The position numbers and the translations under genes were made by a program. The notes beneath the pieces were generated by a model, which was given only the letters and a program-made list of their open reading frames with translations, ran no database searches and had not been told where the DNA came from. 64,000 bases of DNA. It comes from Catajapyx aquilonaris (Eukaryota). The stretch spans positions 1 to 64,000 of the forward strand of contig KZ538110.1 in NCBI GenBank assembly GCA_000934665.2. The letters are read 5' to 3'. Of the stretch, positions 48,501-62,015 are shown in pieces (the stretch's first letter is position 1; each line of letters begins with the position of its first letter).

Positions 48501-49086
48501 GTCTGCGTCGTGGTCTTAGAAACGTCTACAACACCACACCGAGCCTATCTAACTCGATAGTCACATGAGACGGGGAGAGGGAAAGCTGCTCGTCCAACGC
48601 CCAGTCCACTCGCCCACCATCCGACACCGACTAGGAGGGGGGAAAAAATGCACTTCAAAAATGGAGGAGCCGCACGACTCACCTAGTCATCCACAATACT
48701 CTCATGTTTTCAAGTTGCGTGTACATACTTTTAGAGTGATGGTAAATTATTGATATATTTTATAAACGTAAAATTTGGTATGCATTTTATCCAAACCGGT
48801 GTTAAAACCTGAAAGTGATGATGTAGTTCTATATTTGACGCACAGATGGCAGCAAGAGACCATGAGTGTAAATTTGCAATGTCATGCAGTCAGAGCCATC
48901 TAGCTTTTATATTTAAAAAGAAGCGGCCGAAGCGCGGTTTTTCTGTGGTGCCTCGTCGTACTTCGAATTTAATTCGTTCCAGTAAGTCGTTTTCACTCCG
49001 AATTGTTCGAACTCCGAATCAGTTTTTCCCATAAGAAATAATTGAAAGTGAATTAATCCTTTCCCAGACCCGCCCAGTCCCTAAGT

Positions 49087-49315
49087 CAGTGGTTCCCAAC
49101 CTGGGGGCCATGGAGAAGGTTGAGGGGCCGCGGTTATTTTTATAAATTAAAAAATAACTAAAATGAAAAAAAAATTGAAAAAATTAGGAAATTTCATGAC
49201 GAATGTTTGTTTCAACATCTACTAACACTCGGGCGGGGGGAAGGGGGGGTGGTGTCGCAGGTTACTTGACTATCATAAAAGGGGGTCGCGACCCGAAAAA
49301 GGTTGGGAGCCCCTG
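49087..49315. mobile_element. hAT (Charlie-like) MITE
   Basis: CAGTGGTTCCCAACCT ... AGGTTGGGAGCCCCTG; TSD ccctaagt/ccctaagc. Confidence 0.82.
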
Positions 49316-49324
49316 CCCTAAGCA

Positions 49325-49584
49325 CATAGAGGCATAGACCTTACTAGTTTAGTTTAGTTTAGTTTATTCGGAAGAAGCCAAAGCAACTAGGCTATCTGGC
49401 TGTAAGAATGCAAAGGTTCGTGGGACAAATGGAGAGAGAAACGAAGAGGAAAAAGAAGAGAGGAAAGACTGTCTCGTGTCTCCTATCCCAAAGACCTGTC
49501 CGGCTTGGGTGGCCCTGCCCGTAGACGAAGCTACCGCCGCATAGCTCTTGGGGTCACGGGAGAAACGCAAACAAAAGGTCTATG
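49325..49584. mobile_element. P-like CATAGA-ended mini-element containing a retroposon fragment
   Basis: CATAGA..CATAGACCTT ... AAGGTCTATG; TSD cctaagca/cctaaaca; internal minus-strand insert with (TAAAC)n tail. Confidence 0.6.
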
Positions 49585-50234
49585 CCTAAACACTACCAAT
49601 TTTGATAAACTTAAACAGCAAATACCCACAATTTCAGAAAAACATAACACGATTAAATGCCCTTGAGCCTAGATAATAAATTAAAACACGGAAGCAATAA
49701 ATAAAATACTTAAATATACAGTCCAATAACATGGAAATTGCAATTACTATACAAGTGAGAAGTCGGGTGGCTGGTGGAGAGGAAGAGTCACCTTCCATTA
49801 TACAGTAGCCTATACTGTATATAACCTAACCCACCAACAATAAAGCGATAAAAACACTGAAAACACACGAGAGTAACGCAAGAAATGCTTTCACAGAGAG
49901 AGCGAGACACGACTTGGGCAGTTGGGCGCACAACAGATGATCTTTACGCAGCAGCGAGCATATTTTTTTCAACGCGAGTGCAGTTCGAACTTAGAAGCAT
50001 CGTTCGAACTCAGGAACAAATTTCTCTCGAAATGAGCGTTCGAACTCTGGAACGTTCGAAGTGAGGGGCGTTCGAAATACGAGGCATCGCTGTAATTGTG
50101 TCATAATGGTGAGGACTGCACAGTATTCTTTGTATCATAATATTCTGGTGTATAAAAGCGCAAGAGAAGATCTACTTTGCCACTTCGTTGCTAGTGGTAA
50201 TGGCCTGCCTATTATAGAGTATAATTATCATAGA

Positions 50235-50507
50235 TGTTAGGCTCAAACCCCGAAAACGGCCATTGGGCGAAAAAAAACGTCCATACCGCAGAATGCTCCT
50301 TGTCCAACCATCCATTCTGCAGAATGGGCGGTTTGACATGGAGCATTCTGCGGTCTGGACGTTTTAAACCGTCCATTCTGCAGAATGGACGTTTTAATGA
50401 AACGGCCAGACCGCGAAATGCTGCGGAATGGATGGTTTGGCATAGAGCATTTTGCAGTATGGACGTTTTTTTCACCCAATGGCCATTTTCCGGGTTTGAG
50501 CCTAACA
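50235..50507. mobile_element. Palindromic MITE with TGT...ACA ends and 4-bp TSD (Ginger-like)
   Basis: TAGA|TGTTAGGCTCAAACCC ... GGGTTTGAGCCTAACA|TAGA; internal CCATTCTGCAGAATGG palindromes. Confidence 0.82.
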
Positions 50508-50892
50508 TAGACACTGCGACTCTGCGTGTCATATTATAAATAATTTACAGATGCGATAGCTTAATTGGTGCAACTCAGATTACCATATTTCGACATTTGT
50601 TAGAAAAAATTATTCAATTTCGTGAATAGCCAGATTTATGAAGAAAAAAAAGCAGTAGAGTAGATATACGGTATATGATCACGCCACATGCTCATGGTGG
50701 GGTCTGCCCATCCTTGGTCAAAGACGGAAGAAAAAAAAATCGTCACAGTGATGGACACAATTCACTTCAAGGCTTGCTGACAGGAGGACTTATACGCACC
50801 TATCAGTGAGTCAGTGTTCATCTACATTGCTGATGGGAGTAACATTGGCATACATCATCAACAATAACGAAATATTAGCTGGCTGTATAGTA

Positions 50893-51120
50893 CAAGGTGA
50901 TTCTCTCGAATGGAAACCCAAACATTCCTCAATAACATTTTAACTATGGTATGGTTCCCGATGAAAATTGACATGTACTTATACCTTGTATCATGCCAAA
51001 CAAGGTCTGACTAAAGAATATACCAAAAGTGGTCCCCTCCAGCATCCAAGAATTTTTTAATGCGAGTCTGCATATTGCCGAAGACTCCTGCCGATTGCCG
51101 GCGGGGATGACTCAATCTCC
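50893..51120. mobile_element. Left arm of MITE family F
   Basis: Matches the 18986 copy but lacks its SINE insertion, so it shows the empty site. Confidence 0.85.
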
Positions 51121-51176
51121 GCATTTTTTTTTTTTTAGGCTTCAAACTTAAAGTGTGGGTAAACTAATATCAGCAA

Positions 51177-51475
51177 GGGGAGGCGAAGTGGCGCAACGGT
51201 CCCGGGTTCGATCCCAACCCGGGGACACCCCCTTCATCTCGTGCAGAGTAAAGTGTCGTCTCTGACTTCGTCTCGGGTGGAATTTCCACAGACTAATCCA
51301 CCCGGGGGAGCTCACAAAAACGACCACATGCGGACAAGGCACTGCACCTGCACATCCCCTCCTGTCATCCCTTCCAGCCCGTGGGCCCGGGCGCTGTATA
51401 TAAATAGGATCCAATATTGTATTCTGACGATTAATAAAGGTCCGGCAAGACCCCAATAGGACTACGCCTATACCC

Positions 51476-51539
<64 letters not shown>
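51177..51539 (+). mobile_element. tRNA-derived SINE, family 3
   Basis: GGTTCGATCCC B box; long (ATT)n tail; 15-bp TSD aactaatatcagcaa. Confidence 0.92.
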
Positions 51540-51543
<4 letters not shown>

Positions 51544-52941
51544 AATATCAGCAACAAATACTTTTGATAACCATTAACTCTGCAAAAACTGCTAAAACAG
51601 GCTGTTTTGTGCCAAAGTAGCCATATAAACCAGACATGTATTTTTGGATCACCATGCATATGGGATAAAGAAAATGAGATTCAATGAAAGGCTCAGATGA
51701 TCTACGAGATGATCTAGCGTACGTACTTAAAACATTAAAACTGTTCAAATTGGGGACGAAGAGGCTGCCTCTACATTTTTCCTATCATCAGTGAGCTGCA
51801 CACTTTTCTCGATTATCTCGAAAGAGTCAAAAGTGGAGTTGTTAAATATTCATTTTCATTTTTTTTTAAATGGTTTGGCTGTCCACCCCCATCTGTTCCT
51901 TACATTATTCATTGATGTGCAGTGTGTTAGATGAATCCTTATTTCTCAAATATTAGACCCTACAGGTTGGTACCCTGACAGGCGGTGCGTTTTCGTCAAA
52001 CAAATCAAATCAGCCCCTGTCTCTCACATGGTGCAGCCTACGCCTGAACTCGTGACAGTAGGTCCTAATAACCCGTATAGCAAACTGACCGCTAAATTGC
52101 CTGTCTTCCCTAGGGGTCCAGCTGGGTGAAACCTCTTAGTGCGCCACACACCTTTACATTGTTTTTGTCGGTAGCATTCCTTGGGGATGCCGTGTAAAGA
52201 CGCCTAAGCAGTTGATGCGCTTAGTGGGCAGCCAAGCGAACAACGAATCAAGATACTGCACCCACCCTTTTTAGAAAGACCACCCCCACCATGCCCCTAG
52301 GGTACACACCTCTTTCGGCTCAAAATTCTGAAAAGCAAGAGGGACCAGACCTGTCACCTGCATGAAAAGGCTTCAGGTCGGGTTCTATTTTCGAAACGAG
52401 GGTACGTGAGAGTCCAGAAGAAAGTTGTCAGCAGGGACAGAAACACCGCTACCTTGCCAGATGCAGCAAGCACCGCAAAACCGATCACTTTTCCTTTCCG
52501 AAAATCTCCAGAAATATTGAGAGTTGTTTACCTGCAGGACAGGTAAAAGCCCTCGGGTCTTATCGTGTGTAACACAGTGAGTGACCACCCCCCCCCCNCC
52601 CCCCCGCCTCTAGAACCGCCTCCATAAAGCTTCCTACAACACCAAACACCACTATCCTTCATCGGTGAGGAGGGCGGGGGGACTCCCAACTCCCCTCTAC
52701 CCCTCCAATATTCTGGAGTCGTCGGCCAGACAGTCAGTTCGTCAGCGTACCAGTCAGACGGACAAGCACCTGGGAGCTCTGTCTTGTCCCGATGAACAAC
52801 CCTCCTTCAAGGTCAGCCTCCTTATCGTGGAACTCAATGTGTTCTTACGCTAGATACCTCGGAGCTCACTGCAAGTAATAAGTGGTTGATGAGAAACAGT
52901 GGACAGTGTGACACACCGTGTTTGTCTGCTGTTGGAGCAAG

Positions 52942-53034
52942 ATGCAGTGCTGGTGGACCATCGTCTTCGGATGCTGGTGCTGGATAATAGTGGCTGACTC
53001 GGACTCCACTGCTGTCATACCCATTTCCGCGCCG
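52942..53034 (+). CDS. fog: Fog-like gene coding exon 1, signal peptide (MQCWWTIVFGCWCWIIVADSDSTAVIPISAP)
   Basis: ATG followed by a hydrophobic stretch; CCG|GTAAGT donor in phase 0 matches the phase-0 acceptor at 54848. Confidence 0.7.
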
Positions 53035-53644
53035 GTAAGTTATGAACATCATGGCCATACAGATATGTTTGTTTTGTTGATAGACGCCTGAAAGCCTTGC
53101 CTTGCATCTTGGGATTAGTGGGCTTATATTCTCCGGATAGCCTGCAGGTTATAACGCAACCTAGCCAATAGAAAGTAAAGCGCATTTGCCGCGTGTGGCG
53201 AGAAGGAAATTGACTTCATGTGGCATTGTCCATAAAGTACGTCACGCTTGTAATGGTTGATGCTGAGCTGGCGTGACAGACAGTGCTATATACCAAAGGC
53301 TAAGGTGGCACTAGAATATGCCCTGTTCATGCAACCTTTTAACCAGCCGTTAAGAGCTAACGGCAGTTTGGTAAAATGTCAACAAACTAACTTAAACTAC
53401 AGCAGTTACCTCCTATAACTACCGGTATATACCGGTATACATTTTAGAGTAGGTTATAGCCAGAGTGACTGCCAGATGTGGTTAGGAGGAAGAGAAAAAA
53501 AGCCGTATATCAAAGCCGTGACATACCGATACAGTATACTTTTGGGGAACCCAACACGGTTCACCATTTTTCGTTATTTATTTTGCGACTAGAGTTCTTT
53601 AAATAAACAATTAAAACACAACCTGTCTAAACAATATTTTCATA

Positions 53645-54233
53645 CGAGGGCCTTAATTCAATAAGAGTGCTCATGATTTTTTGTACTATCATGAATTCAT
53701 GATGTTGATATAATTATCCAAGTAGACTACTGCTGTCGAAGGTGGACGTGTAATGTGTATATGCTTATGAGCATCAGTCTGATAAGCACCATGTGGGTGT
53801 CTCAGCACAATCGCCCCCTCCTCCCTGAAATCACCTATTGAGTTATGGCTTTGGCACGTGAAAAGCACAAAGCGCGGAAATTCTGCTTTCGCAGTGTAAC
53901 TTTGATTGTCAAATCCGATTTGTCGCAAATATCTGTAGGTGGTGTTCACAGAATAATATGACCACCTGCACATGAGGCGTGTATCAGCTGCCGGAACGCC
54001 CTGCTTGCAGGTGGATTAGCGAGGCCTTCCTTGAACGTCGTAAACTAACGACTGCCGTACTGTAAGGTAGCGCATCTTCGGTTGAGAATCCTTTATCCTA
54101 AATTCCAATATCCTAAAACCTCCAACATCCAAAACATTCCGGATAAACGATTCTCAACAAGTATCACCAGGTCAAGATAGTACTTTTTATACTTTCTCAT
54201 AAATCACGATCATTCTTCATTGAAAGGCCCTCG
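53645..54233. mobile_element. mariner-like MITE in the fog-like intron
   Basis: TA|CGAGGGCCTT ... AAGGCCCTCG|TA. Confidence 0.82.
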
Positions 54234-54847
54234 TATTAATGGTGATCGGCAGTGGTAGGCTAGCTTTTTGTTGCTCTTTGAACATGTGTGCTATAGTATT
54301 CACTTCAGCATTTACATCATTTCGTGATCAACTGCCAGCAAATTTTTATGGTACGAGATGGTCGTCAATATTTTTTAGCCCGAGGGTTTAGAACTATTAG
54401 TGCGTAACATGACAAGGGGACGGTGCTGGAGGCCGGGGAATCAGTATACGGAAGGCCTAAACAACCATATCAGTTCATATCGTTGTTTGTTGAAAATTTG
54501 TTGAAAATGTAGGCCTAACATGGTGACATATTGGTAATTGCTTCCGCTTCAATAGCGCACGTAACATATCATCTCGCTAGTCATTTGTCGTTTCTTATGG
54601 GTGGGTAGGGATTTTTCACCAGGAAGAGGATAGGTCTGAATAGGATTTTAACGATGTAGAGTGCAATTAAGGCTTCTTGGCTAACATCCTCTGGATTTAA
54701 GTTACCAGTAACAAACAGTACAGTTCATTTAAATTGCAAAATGTTATTTTCCCCATTTTCATGACGGGCAGTAAAGAAGGGGTTACATTTCGAAAACCGA
54801 AAAACTTGCCATCTTACAAAATAATATAACTTAACACCATCTTACAG

Positions 54848-55981
54848 GTCACAACCGAAGATAGCATCGAATTGCCTCAATTATTGAGCCTGATAACCAA
54901 TGGCGTGGCCATGCTGTACAGCCAGGAGGAGAGAAAGGAGAGCGGCGTGCAGCGGTACGTGTCCGCCAGTGCAACATACTGGTATCCACGTGCAACTGGA
55001 AGCGAAAGGTACGAGTACAAAGCCGAGTACCCCAGGAAAAATGACCTGGCACCAAGAGGAAGGAAAGGTCGTGACAGCAGTAGCAGCGACTTCACAGACG
55101 TGATGATGCCACCAAGACAATCTCGCATAACACCGAAGGCCATCTTCATCGCTCCGAGGCTGCGTCTTTGCCCCGTGGGAGAAAAACAGGATCATGGTGG
55201 CACGTGTCGCAAGGACAGCGTCTCATCGCGTGATTTCCAAAACCAACTTATATTGGAAAAGCTGCAAAAGTTTCTGCAGAGAAGCCAGATTATCCAGGCG
55301 GAGCTGACAGGTGGCTTCGATACCACGACGCTCCAGACGACAACAGGGGACTTTTCGACCCCGGATGATTTGGCAGTGACTCAGAGGTCCCTGGGCGGGG
55401 AAGGGACCGGTGAGTCAGCAGCTCGTCTTGGATCAGAACTAGAAGATAATCTGCCCTTGTCAACTACAACAGAAGCCACTACTTATGCGCCGACAACTGC
55501 TACAGGGGGAGTAGTGTATGACACATCCACAACTGCTGCGGAGGTTGTTACCATACCAGTTGGCGAGGTACCGTCGACGACAGTGCGTGATGTGCCTTCG
55601 ACGGTTGTTACTGAGGTGCCTGCGTCTAACCAAGAAGTAGTGTCGGATGATCAAGAACAAGTGCCAGTGTACCAAGTGACGTTTGATGACCACCAACAGC
55701 CTACAGTGTTGCCACCAGGTCCTTTTACGCCCTGGCCAAATTTCCTTAATTACAACATTGACCGTTTTTATGGAAATCGCTTGCCGTTCCCAAACTGGAG
55801 GTTTCCACGACCCCGACGACCTTTGCCGCCCCACCTGTTGCCTCCAGGACACCCTCGCTTTTCACACGAATTTTGGGACTGGTGGCTAAGGGCTACGTTG
55901 AAGTTCGGAGTCAGCACCTCGTATTATATGAGCATGGGTGTTAAATCTAATTTCCCAAACGATTTTTTCCCTGGAGACTAA
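54848..55981 (+). CDS. fog: Fog-like secreted protein, coding exon 2 (FOG_N-like two-Cys motif, Thr/Ser-rich stalk, W/P-rich tail)
   Basis: cttacag acceptor; 1134-nt open frame; RITPKAIFIAPRLRLCPVGEKQDHGGTCRK resembles the Fog N-terminal motif as I recall it. The CDS is well supported; the orthology is inferred. Confidence 0.75.
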   Translation, partial: VTTEDSIELPQLLSLITNGVAMLYSQEERKESGVQRYVSASATYWYPRATGSERYEYKAEYPRKNDLAPRGRKGRDSSSSDFTDVMMPPRQSRITPKAIFIAPRLRLCPVGEKQDHGGTCRKDSVSSRDFQNQLILEKLQKFLQRSQIIQAELTGGFDTTTLQTTTGDFSTPDDLAVTQRSLGGEGTGESAARLGSELEDNLPLSTTTEATTYAPTTATGGVVYDTSTTAAEVVTIPVGEVPSTTVRDVPSTVVTEVPASNQEVVSDDQEQVPVYQVTFDDHQQPTVLPPGPFTPWPNFLNYNIDRFYGNRLPFPNWRFPRPRRPLPPHLLPPGHPRFSHEFWDWWLRATLKFGVSTSYYMSMGVKSNFPNDFFPGD

Positions 55982-56076
55982 CATGTCACACTTATTCCGG
56001 AGGAGAAAATAGTTTGAGAGCGTAAAATCTTTGTTGATAAAATGTACATAAAATACGACTTATCCCAGTGAAATTA

Positions 56077-56216
56077 CTATTGGGTTCAAATACTTTTGGC
56101 CACTTTATCCTGGTCTTGAAGAAACCCTTAACACACACACCTCGTTATCGTGGGGTCTGTGCGAACGGTTGCTTCAAGACCAGGATAAAGTGGCCAAAAG
56201 TATTCGAACCCGATAG
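56077..56216. mobile_element. 140-bp Tc1/mariner-like hairpin MITE
   Basis: TA|CTATTGGGTTCAAATACTTTTGGCCACTTTATCCTGGTCTTGAAG ... inverse|TA. Confidence 0.88.
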
Positions 56217-57099
56217 TACATGTGAATTATTTGCATTGTTGTACTGTATGTTATAGAATTTTGTGAGAAACTTGTCTCTCTTGCTAGGAAAGTATGTGTA
56301 GCTTTTTGTATATGGCATCGTTCTGGAGCTGTAAATAAAACTATAGCTGATGTTTGTAGATCGATCATTTTATTTCATTTTCTTTCGCCAGCTTGCACAA
56401 CAGGATTTACAGCAATAATTGTACATTATTCCTGAGCTCTACTGGAATTTACACTAATTAGGGTAATCGTTTACCGCACAATGAACAGGTATGGCTATTT
56501 TTATTCCTTGACCTATTCCAAGAACAAAATACGCGACGTAATTTTTGGCTGAGAGTCGTTTTTATGCCGCGGTATACGGAAGCATGTTACTTGTATTATG
56601 ATAGGTGTATTAGACCAAAAAGATCACATTAACTATATTGATCGGTATCCCAGATACAGGTAGCACAAGTTTGTGACATCTTCAAAAAACGTTTTATCCC
56701 CGTCTTAAAGGGAAAGCAAAAGTATATTATAATGCCTCTCATTAGCCTATCCGGAAGAGTAAGCACAAATATTATGAAAAGGGGTGCTGAAAGTTTTGAA
56801 TTTCAAGTCTCTCATGGAAATTACTTGTGTAGCCTGCAATGATTGATGAATGAAGGAAGGTTTTCACCAATAAGTAGTTTTCATGTAATTATAGAAAATC
56901 GTTTAATCAAGAACAAATACTGACAGAAAACTCACTAATAACTCACATTACTGCATTTCCAGCCCAAAGAAGAAGGGCACGAAATGCATAACGGAAAATA
57001 TTGCCCAATGAATTGCTTTTGATGGTCTGGAAATCATTCTAACAACACTTTAAAGCAATATTCTGACACTGCTGTGGACATATCTCTATACGTAACTTG

Positions 57100-57429
57100 G
57101 GAGACGGAGTGGCGCTGCGGTAACGTATGCGCCCACGGATGTTAAGGTCCCGGGTTCGATCCCAGCCCGGGGACACCCCCTTCATCTCGTGCAGAGTTCG
57201 GGGGTCATTTCTGGCTTCGTCTCGGGTGGTATTTCCAATAGACTAAACCACCCGGGGGAGTTCACAAAATGACCACAGCTACGACATTGCACTGCACCTT
57301 GCACATCCCCTCCTGTCATCCTGCCCGTGGGCCCGGGCTTTCATTAAATAGGCACCATGTACTTAACAACTTAAAATACAATAAAGGTCCATGCTATATA
57401 CCCCGGAAGGGGTGAAAGCATTACCCACA

Positions 57430-57493
<64 letters not shown>

Positions 57494-58828: not shown

Positions 58829-59071
58829 GGCTTTTATATCTTCGCATTTTAATAAGCAACCTTGAAAATTCAACATCCTGCTAAATTGCAGCAATTCCTA
58901 GCATGTCCAAGCAAGCAGGTGGCAGGTCGTAAAAATATGTCCCATGTCGCACGCAGACATGTCTATGGATATATTGATCAACAAGGTGTGCGTCTAAGGC
59001 CTAGACATGGCGTGGAAACCATGCAAGTTTCTCTCAACTGTTTCCTTTCCTAAGGAAAAGCTGCTGCCACT

Positions 59072-59146
59072 ATGATTCTTGTGGATCGCTGCTGCATGTG
59101 CCTCAGTCTTCGGACTGGGGTCATCTTACTGGGCATTGTCGAATTG
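59072..59146 (+). CDS. Four-TM LAPTM/DUF4728-like protein exon 1 (MILVDRCCMCLSLRTGVILLGIVEL)
   Basis: ATG; CCxCxSLRTG motif typical of this family; TTG|GTGAGT donor. Confidence 0.88.
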
Positions 59147-59270
59147 GTGAGTATCTCATCCTTTTTCTTAGACATCTAGTTTTATTGGTCCTATAGTTTG
59201 GACAGGTTTATATTTTGCGTCCTCCAAATGAGGTGTATAAGGCTTTGACTTGTCTAATGCCTATTTACAG

Positions 59271-59472
59271 ACATGCTCAGTGTTCAGCTTGTTTCTGCTA
59301 GTCTTCAGCCTTTCATTCCTGAATGACCTGAATGACATGCTGATAGCCGACATGGAAAACAACCCATACTCGTACCCACCGCCAGATCGCAGCGACTCCA
59401 CCACTGCCGTGTCTTACGAGGAAACCAATCACAACTGGGAAATGAACATGCATGCCGCTAAGCGTATCAAAA
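59271..59472 (+). CDS. Four-TM protein exon 2 (end of TM1 and luminal loop)
   Basis: tttacag acceptor, A|GTAAGG donor, open frame. Confidence 0.85.
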
Positions 59473-59635
59473 GTAAGGCTAAGGTTGTCACCTTGTAGGC
59501 CTGTTTTAGTATCACTGCACTGTGCACAAATTTTTTATGTGCCATCGTTCTGTATTCCTCTTTCCCCCATTTCCCCTTTGATACTGCCAAAACTCTTTTG
59601 ACACATTAATTATTATAAGGGTAACTCAGACAAAT

Positions 59636-60180
59636 GTCAGCCAGTCAACGCAGTCAACTGTACGCAGACATGGTTACTAATAAGTTCTGGTAGAAATCTG
59701 TAAAAAAAATCGGGGCATGTCTTATCTACCAGTGTTCCCAATATTAGGTATTAATCATACAGTGGTAGCAGAGCCAGAGCCAGAAGATATTCTTATAGGG
59801 GTTCCCGCGCCGCAGACCTTATCGGGTCAAGGGCAGGTGATAAGCAGTGACATGGTAGAGTGGGAAGGCGACAGAAATATGATTGGAAAGCATGGTTTAT
59901 TCCAGTGTACTCACTAAGACTACTGAGACACCTGTCACACTGCTGGACCAAATGTCTGGTACCAGTGCCATAAAATTGCCACTGTTGCTGACGGAGAATT
60001 CCTCTGGCAACACCAGCAGCAGCAGAGGCCACACGACGTATCTTCAGGCTCTCCTTCTCCTATACCACTCTGATTAAAACCAAATTATGAACACTGATAG
60101 ATGAGACAAGTCCCGATTTTTCGCATATTTTTACCTGGACTTATTCGTAACCACGCCTGTCTACGACTGACTGGCTCACT
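59636..60180. mobile_element. Diverged DNA-transposon-like element with about 90-bp imperfect TIRs
   Basis: catggttactaataagttc..atcggggcatgtcttatcta is inverted relative to tagatgagacaagtcccgat..gacttattcgtaaccacg. Confidence 0.6.
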
Positions 60181-60277
60181 TTCACCACCTAAGGAACCTT
60201 GTACTGTACTACAAGTACCGGTACGTGTTCCTAATGATGTCATCCACAAATACTAATAATGGGTCCTCTTGTTTCAG

Positions 60278-60363
60278 TGGATCAGCACATACTTTATACC
60301 TGTGTCTTCTTTGTAACCATTCAAGCAGTTGGCTGTGCCATGCTACTTTATGGCGCGATTAAG
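60278..60363 (+). CDS. Four-TM protein exon 3 (TM2, ...AMLLYGAIK)
   Basis: tttcag acceptor, AAG|GTAAG donor; LLYGAxK motif. Confidence 0.88.
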
Positions 60364-60572
60364 GTAAGCCAACTTCACTGCAGGCTTTATGAGAAGTGCT
60401 GCTTGTTGCCAGGGCCAGTACCAGTATACACTAGATTATATTATAATATGCAGAAGTTCATTGGTCTTTAAGTTAGGCTTGCCCAAAGGGGTTCACGAAA
60501 ATATTTAGGACAATGCCTGAGTTAAGTGGGATAATTACGTATTATCACACTGCTAATTTCAAGTCCATTATA

Positions 60573-61344
60573 CGAGGTGCTACCCCAAAATTTCATAAAA
60601 TTTGCTCATAAAAACATTAATATTTACATTAAGTCCAGGGGGAAGAAACTCCATATAATTATGCACAATTCCTCAAATGTCAAAGAAAATGATCTGCATT
60701 GAGCTGATTTTGCTGCAAACTGGGTCCGCCATATTTGAAGCTCTTGAACAACTCTTACGTTATTGTTTGTCTTACAGCTTGTTCATCAAAGCCTTATTCA
60801 GCATTCGGTGGGTTGCAGACGAAGTTTTGTTGAGCTTGAAGCAACATTTGATGCAAATCCTTTGCTCCCTAACATCAGCAATTTCGAAAAATCGCAGAAA
60901 CATAAAAAAGCTGTGTAAAGAAAACTGTCGAAACTCGGAAACATGCGCACCTACAGTATGAAGATGCTATATTTCAGACCGTTTCAGACTAATTGCTGAA
61001 GGGTGCACCTAGCACCCCCTATAGAGCAGTGCTTCCCAATTTATTTCGTTGGCGACCCCAAAAAAGGTCTGGTGAAATTTGCGACCATTATATGTGCACA
61101 TTTCGATCCGCCAACATGAAAAGACATGATTGTAAACAGTGAAATGACCTTACCTTATGGTCATGATTTTCAAGAAAGATAGCATCATTTTGTGAAAATA
61201 ATTTGTTACCCTCCCTCGCGACCCAAATATTATTTTCGCGACCCCAAATGGAATTTGGGAAGCACTGCCCCAGAGTCACAAGTTCGTACCTCTACTGGTT
61301 TTCACGGTATATCCAAATTCTCGGAAATTTTGGGTAGCACCTCG
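60573..61344. mobile_element. mariner-like MITE with nested hAT MITE (61027..61267)
   Basis: TA|CGAGGTGCTACCC ... GGGTAGCACCTCG; inner CAGTGCTTCCCAA ... TTGGGAAGCACTG. Confidence 0.8.
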
Positions 61345-61676
61345 AATAGTCTTCTGCCAGAAAAGTAGAAAATTAGGAAAATCGGCATGTATATATTTAG
61401 ACTGCCGTGCTGACTATATAATATTACTATTGAAATTGTGTCAGTCAAGTTCCGCCAAAGTAGGCCTACTTGTTGAGAGCAACAGCAAGGCTACAACAAA
61501 GGGCTGCATATGTTCTAAATTCAACAATATCAACTTCTGTTTGCACAATCATGGGCTTTACCTGTTCATTTCTCCCTGAGAAACTTTGCCAAAAGCTATA
61601 GAAACAAGTGCTAAGGTGGTGTTTGGAATAGAAAACTCTTGTATAACTGGTATAACTCCAAATCGTTCAATTCCAG

Positions 61677-61812
61677 CGTCACAGCCAATTCCTTAAGCCG
61701 TGGTTAGCAATGGTGTCTGTGGGCCTAGTCTGCAATGTGATAGCATTTATGATCTACATGTTCATCTATGGCTTCTATCCTCCCATCTTCATCACTGGTG
61801 CATCTGAATTAG
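61677..61812 (+). CDS. Four-TM protein exon 4 (RHSQFLKPWL..., TM3)
   Basis: ttccag acceptor, G|GTAAG donor; FLxPW motif. Confidence 0.88.
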
Positions 61813-61872
61813 GTAAGGCTAGCCAAGTACTGTACAATTATGGACACTACTCTGAAACTCCTCTTGTTGCAG

Positions 61873-62015
61873 TTCTCATGGTGTACCTCTGGCTGTGTGT
61901 CTTCAGCTACTACCACCAACTGACCGAAGATGAGCAGCAAAGGATGCTGTGTCACTTGAGCAGTACAGGGATGTGGAAAGGGAAATACCGACGCGGCTTG
62001 CCCTACCGAGTGTAA
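61873..62015 (+). CDS. Four-TM protein last exon (TM4, YLWLCVFSYYHQL...LPYRV*)
   Basis: ttgcag acceptor; YxWLCVxSYY motif; TAA stop; total 642 nt = 213 aa. Confidence 0.88.

Follow-up and report, generated by a model that had tools for sequence, protein, structure and literature searches.

The window, a stretch of 64,000 nucleotides, carries a gene whose predicted product is, judged by its sequence, a real, divergent homologue of the insect ligand Folded gastrulation (Fog) outside Insecta. Homology to Fog is highly probable. We further think it reasonably probable that the gene is a dipluran fog orthologue, encoding a short-range GPCR ligand that would drive epithelial cell-shape change. The closest known system is insect Fog (PF15888), exemplified by Gryllus bimaculatus QEQ91227.1 and Phymastichus coffea XP_058798930.1. 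An earlier note on this DNA had described a "divergent fog orthologue." The Fog homology in that description is well supported, but the match is confined to the core, the WxxW and GPLQ motifs are missing, and strict orthology and the ligand function are putative.

Two coding exons joined in phase 0 give a predicted protein of 408 aa (Table 1). The coordinates, the phase, the donor, and the acceptor (...CATCTTACAG/GTC, with the slash at the start of exon 2) agree at the DNA level with the earlier note's model of 31 codons spliced to 1134 nt. The 53034/54848 splice itself is predicted. Among 68 open phase 0 first-exon candidates running from ATG to GT in positions 48600-54800, exon 1 alone has the complete GTAAGT donor, and its N-terminus is tied for the highest hydrophobicity. 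The signal peptide is predicted by hydropathy (KD11 peak of 2.5 at residues 7-17 in exon 1) and presupposes the predicted splice. GC content is 0.41 in the predicted intron, compared with 0.57 in exon 1 and 0.52 in exon 2. Of the 67 stop-to-stop frames in the window that reach at least 100 aa, the one with exon 2 (383 codons) is the longest. Contigs from one sequencing run covered part of exon 2 (267 nt, at 100%) and the downstream repeat and showed no joints; their coverage lies outside exon 1 and the junction. The initiator-like label in Table 1 follows the initiator consensus.

Table 1. Features of the candidate fog gene and its predicted product (window positions; a slash marks an exon boundary)
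Feature	Position	Strand	Residues	Remarks
Initiator-like motif, TCAGTT	52734..52739	+		~200 nt 5' of the ATG, 3 ATGs between; weak
Coding exon 1	52942..53034	+		93 nt, 31 codons; donor CCG/GTAAGT, phase 0
Predicted signal peptide, then short linker (content of exon 1)	52942..53034	+		Hydrophobic residues ~4-18; by hydropathy
Predicted GT-AG intron	53035..54847	+		1813 nt; GC 0.41
Coding exon 2	54848..55981	+		1134 nt, 377 aa + stop
RQSR, RxxR convertase-type site	55115..55126	+	121-124	Directly ahead of core; putative cleavage
Fog core	55118..55282	+	122-176	ITPK-x-IFIAP, Cys139-x11-Cys151, amphipathic helix
Thr/Ser/Val-rich mucin-like stalk	55310..55654	+	186-300	22% Thr
Pro/Phe/Arg/Trp-rich tail	55655..55978	+	301-408	Insect Fog C-terminal motifs not significant here
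Candidate poly(A) signal	56334..56339	+		Sole AATAAA/ATTAAA within 1.2 kb past the stop

The protein features that the earlier note had picked out (its quoted motif, the LILEKLQKFL helix, the Thr-rich stalk, and the tail) are all present, the tail being rich in Pro, Phe, and Arg and also containing Trp. The LILEKLQKFL stretch has a hydrophobic moment of 0.80, the top value among all 11-mers of exon 2. The stalk is likely to be O-glycosylated. An AF2 model of the core has a short hairpin between and beside the two Cys residues, followed by a helix (pLDDT, 69; pTM, 0.27); it was built on an insect Fog alignment and is thus not independent evidence. A fold search of the PDB with this model (pTM, 0.27) returned nothing at an E value of ≤0.001, and a sequence search of the PDB with the candidate returned 0 matches. 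By the latter measure, Fog would be a ligand without a solved relative.

The earlier note had called for a scan against Pfam FOG_N (PF15888). FOG_N was the sole family matched in a Pfam scan to an E value of ≤1, but exon 2 scored 14.8 bits and a 71-aa piece scored 18.1 bits, both short of the 27-bit cutoff, and the match spanned only profile positions 1-44 of 111. The Pfam model performs poorly on many members: seven of 10 insect proteins scanned were also below the cutoff (20.6 to 26.1 bits), and Gryllus Fog scored only 30.1; in all ten, the alignment extended to position 79-97. In the ESM Atlas, all three clusters listed for exon 2 were FOG_N (0.84 to 0.85; 170 to 176 features), which we treat as a lead only; residues 80-160 gave no usable match.

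A phmmer search covering 1.84 billion representatives gave three matches. The top one was a parasitoid-wasp protein named "mucin-2-like" (E value, 5e-5). We discarded the other two, P0004 and P0005, as chance matches caused by repeats. With the wasp protein as the query, we obtained 37 relatives from 182 candidates, among them the Gryllus bimaculatus protein annotated "folded gastrulation." In a direct blastp comparison, Gryllus Fog and the candidate were 38% identical over 58 aa (pairwise E value, 5e-8). We built four profiles from 37, 26, 9, and 7 insect proteins, leaving the candidate out of all of them. The candidate scored 43.1, 38.7, 26.2, and 17.9 bits, respectively, whereas 2000 shuffles peaked at 4.3, 2.6, 6.9, and 5.1 bits; across ~1900 decoy frames, the top score was 9.5 bits. 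Scaled arithmetically to the six-frame genome, the candidate's scores correspond to E values of ~4e-9, 8e-8, 5e-4, and 0.2, of which the first is the most favorable because the 37 proteins were collected with the candidate's own top match as the seed and are therefore not fully independent.

The candidate and insect Fogs have in common an N-terminal signal peptide (predicted in the candidate), a basic site followed by ITPK-x-(I/V)FIAP, a C-x11-C loop in which G and D occupy conserved positions, an amphipathic helix after it, and a variable, low-complexity, Ser/Thr-rich C-terminal part. Both appear to be single copy, with core to stop on one exon. The C-x11-C spacing holds in 37 of 37 insect Fogs and in the candidate, and nine alignment columns are invariant across 30 sequences, candidate included. 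Scored on the core alone, the candidate reached 46 to 48 bits, compared with 49.7 to 77.3 bits for five left-out insect members. Its core is 33 to 54% identical to those of insect Fogs; for the two members that diverge most within the set, identity to the rest is 35 to 53%. The candidate has A where the insect ITPKS motif has S. The pattern ITPKS[IV]FIA, with which we found five canonical insect-type loci (two of them identical) in metagenome contigs, does not fit the candidate and is thus blind to candidate-like genes. Pattern searches of viral contigs (30 matches) and of prokaryote contigs (12 matches) gave nothing that was confirmed. A word-seeded search with the candidate core gave 6 candidates, none at an E value of ≤0.1.

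The shortness of the matched stretch leaves room for a convergent origin, in which the gene would encode an unrelated precursor from which a small disulfide-loop peptide of the secapin kind is released between the two basic sites that border the loop (RQSR at 121-124 and RK at 152-153). The loop resembles that of Secapin-like peptides (PF17521), with a short Cys-Pro-x-Gly segment, a second Cys closing it, and a secreted precursor. An RK pair directly after the second Cys, which this reading uses, occurs in 0 of 41 insect Fogs. However, the match to Fog continues through the helix beyond RK, and the candidate fits the invariant columns described above. Unlike Secapin, it begins its core with ITPK as Fogs do, continues into a helix, and ends in a C-terminal part of 250 aa. 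No Secapin match appeared in the Pfam scan at an E value of ≤1, and PF17521 searched against the genome gave two matches below the cutoff, both elsewhere and the better one antisense to another reading frame. The earlier note had named better matches to unrelated secreted peptides, together with a lack of FOG_N, as evidence against its proposal; FOG_N was matched below the cutoff, and no short peptide ranked above a Fog among the representatives searched with phmmer. We therefore consider a convergent peptide precursor quite improbable.

Outside the core, the candidate departs from insect Fogs. An upstream WxxW motif, present in 34 of 37 insect Fogs, is absent from the candidate protein, and six-frame inspection of positions 48600-54900 gave no convincing copy. 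A GPLQxNIP-like motif closes the Fog domain in 37 of 37 insect Fogs, whereas the candidate lacks it by pattern; a GPLQ profile, one of five small motif profiles used, gave a marginal 2.5 bits, equaled by 48 of 2000 shuffles. The other four (one upstream and three C-terminal) were null on the candidate, as was a longer profile of the insect Fog C-terminal part. By eye, FWDWW...LKFG in the candidate tail resembles insect WW...LRFW; the C-terminal profiles were not significant. At least one N-glycosylation sequon is found in 36 of 37 insect Fogs, compared with none in the 408-aa protein. In the five insect-type loci from metagenome contigs, the coding sequence is uninterrupted from signal peptide to stop, whereas in the candidate an intron follows the signal-peptide exon. 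Since flanking motifs, sequon, and exon structure all differ, we file the candidate as a Fog-core variant rather than a textbook member.

These differences bear on a second alternative, that the candidate is a true homologue but pre-Fog or paralogous. It would then be a secreted mucin-like protein in which the ancestral ITPK/disulfide/helix core does another job (in extracellular matrix, in cuticle or gland secretion, or with another receptor), and Mist-coupled signaling would have arisen only in insects as flanking motifs were added. The insect motifs tested outside the core are all absent or nonsignificant in the candidate, its intron is missing from the five insect loci, and according to one review (PMC4182926), the conservation of Mist does not extend beyond insects. 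On the other hand, WxxW is also missing from P0040 and P0041, two members with high FOG_N scores, and in a further study (10.1101/578526) insect Fog is described as a conserved Fog domain preceded by a signal peptide and followed by a highly variable C-terminus, a layout that, as given in a figure legend there, fits the candidate. Mthl1 is listed among the oldest Mth-like paralogues in PMC4768249, and our genome searches gave neither a paralogue nor a better candidate. A pre-Fog or paralogous protein is, in our judgment, unlikely, though clearly less so than a convergent one.

The genome assembly searched comprises 285.6 Mb. The N-terminus of Gryllus Fog matched the candidate locus alone (1 candidate; E value, 0.06), and those of two other insect Fogs gave 0 candidates. 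A search with PF15888 raised 1 candidate but yielded no match at an E value of ≤10, and the candidate core recovered only itself. With these single-sequence queries and PF15888, no second fog-like copy was found. On the receptor side, GPR158/Smog-type domains were found on 3 contigs, and class-B GPCR exons were numerous (58 matches). Both receptor types are ancient, so that their presence does not discriminate between readings.

The earlier note had tied its evolutionary argument to a non-insect arthropod host, and mitochondrial ND5 identified such a host, a japygid dipluran. Among the best 120 of 8000 matches, ND5 was 84% identical to that of Japyx solifugus, 74% to that of Occasjapyx, 73% to a further protein, and 66% to that of Parajapyx, with named non-diplurans at ≤63%. 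Japyx belongs to Diplura (Japygidae), outside Insecta. In the mitochondrial contig, trnL lies between cox1 and cox2. Besides this japygid-type contig, a COX1 search brought up only a frameshifted copy (86% identical) on a nuclear-type contig and a single weak fragment. One repeat from the window had 2703 candidates genome-wide, and the 40 that were scored were 90 to 100% identical; repeats of the window also occurred in 4 of 40 other nuclear loci. By these repeats, the window is part of the bulk nuclear genome.

If the contig came from insect prey or contamination, or if the host were misidentified, the candidate would be an ordinary insect fog. The host was called from mitochondrial contigs, the flanks of the nuclear COX1 copy share no repeat with the window or the 40 other loci, and the nuclear genes of the window gave no taxonomic placement, all of which leave some room for this explanation. 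It fits poorly with the genome-wide repeat and the repeats common to 4 of 40 loci, and with a COX1 search that returned one japygid-type mitochondrial contig and no second mitochondrial lineage. The candidate also lacks motifs typical of insect Fogs. Moreover, matches to the odorant-receptor family numbered only 2, both weak, of 15 scored; diplurans are described as lacking odorant receptors in PMC6080948, and the two weak matches are in line with Diplura. We give contamination or a wrong host a very slim chance.

We return to the reading that we favor, a dipluran Fog ligand. Insect Fog is described in PMC4182926 as a secreted short-range ligand of Mist that acts via Cta, RhoGEF2, Rho1, and Rok on myosin. 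In the candidate, the signal peptide would direct the protein into the secretory route, and a convertase would cut after RQSR and expose ITPK as a new N-terminus. In 39 of 41 insect Fogs, a dibasic pair stands immediately ahead of the core, against a background of 1.5% per position; from this, together with the RxxR site (RQSR) in the candidate, we infer convertase cleavage. A limited literature search found no work on furin cleavage of the Fog ligand. The Cys139-Cys151 hairpin and the amphipathic helix would form a receptor-binding head, carried by an O-glycosylated Thr-rich stalk that may limit its spread. Only ~55 aa are common to the candidate and insect Fogs, and this stretch marks the likely receptor-binding unit and a possible processing site. 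By analogy with insects (PMC4182926 and PMC6794076), the ligand might activate Mist/Mthl1 and/or Smog, and the receptor might signal through G-alpha12/13, RhoGEF2, Rho1, and Rok to myosin II. Most plausibly, it would act as the blastoderm forms or as epithelia fold at a later stage.

Benton et al. (2019, PMC6794076) reported no detectable fog homolog in non-insect genomes. The gene was linked to winged insects by Urbansky et al. (2016, PMC5042651), and Fog signaling was classed as an insect-specific innovation in a 2022 review (PMC9574626). The search in PMC5042651 included a japygid dipluran genome at an E value cutoff of 0.001; from that text and the statement by Benton et al., we infer that Diplura were scored negative. 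Our single-query, genome-wide E value of ~0.06 with Gryllus Fog would miss such a cutoff. PMC5042651 was the only work found to mention both folded gastrulation and Diplura, and the main text of two dipluran genome papers (PMC6938034 and 10.64898/2026.07.16.716246) does not mention fog. Among the literature matches listed, whose scope lay outside subscription papers and InterPro/OrthoDB annotations, there was no report of a non-insect fog.

A Fog core in a wingless, non-insect hexapod makes it likely that the signal arose before insects. A non-insect fog homolog would break the link between fog and wings. The placement of Diplura is debated, with a sister relation to insects in PMC6938034 and to springtails in PMC11441524; the origin of fog would move back by at least one node, and by two under the latter placement. 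A broader proposal, which we advance tentatively and rate slightly below an even chance, is that Fog signaling is older than insects, that the candidate is the first non-insect fog and shows the ancestral ligand in its minimal form (a mucin stalk carrying a single disulfide hairpin, a single amphipathic helix, and an ITPK N-terminus freed by a convertase), that the other insect motifs came later, and that insect Fogs are proproteins cut at the dibasic site. The suggestion of Benton et al. (PMC6794076) that a blastoderm role is ancestral becomes testable, and the candidate could serve as a bridging sequence for fog hunts in springtails, Protura, and crustaceans.

The surroundings of the gene were compared with those of insect fog loci by tblastx of their short flanks against the window, with no match. 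Downstream of the candidate lies a weak DUF4728 gene. Its upstream neighbors are metaxin-like and Lasp-like exons, both on the minus strand, with domains that agree with the names MTX2 and Lasp given in the earlier note.

Of 41 insect Fog sequences (the proteins P0003 and P0006 to P0041 and the insect-type fog loci L019 to L023, two of which are identical), 39 have a dibasic pair immediately N-terminal to the core. This sequence pattern suggests that insect Fogs undergo proprotein processing that has gone unreported. Four wasp and bee members of the family (P0003, P0012, P0019, and P0027) carry misleading automatic names; such names include mucin-2-like, FLO11-like, slender lobes-like, and HDP1-like.

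The MITE-like element that follows the dipluran Fog-like gene is 86% self-complementary, with numerous divergent copies among the sequences of run X1, and a genome-wide search found 2,703 candidates for the flanking SINE-like repeat. The downstream neighbor gene has a weak DUF4728 match (E = 0.0055).

Features near the Fog-like gene and elsewhere in the host genome (G000)
Feature	Location	Strand	Remark
SINE-like dispersed repeat	window 51198-51539 and 57146-57493		one copy on each side of the Fog-like gene
MITE-like palindromic element, 144 bp	window 56075-56218		close to the Fog-like stop codon, on its 3′ side
Multi-exon membrane-protein gene	window 59054-62015	+	3′ of the Fog-like gene, same strand
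Nuclear copy of mitochondrial trnI-trnM-nad2-trnW/C/Y-cox1 (L004)	G000:C5905:579-3228		frameshifted
DUF1676 match (L008)	G000:C135:55329-55601	minus
7tm_6 match (L010)	G000:C453:69645-69911
7tm_6 match (L011)	G000:C742:1930-2187

Elsewhere in the genome, L008 matches DUF1676, the Osiris-family domain, above the cut-off (40.8 bits), in a reading frame that opens with a signal-peptide-like N terminus. Because the Osiris family is described as insect-specific, L008 may represent a second “insect-specific” family present in this dipluran. Weak 7tm_6 matches fall within long single frames at L010 (29 bits; 439 amino acids) and L011 (22 bits; 334 amino acids), which are possibly intronless gustatory-type receptors. 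Across 249 nt, the nuclear copy of mitochondrial DNA and the mitochondrial contig, C8523, share 86% identity.
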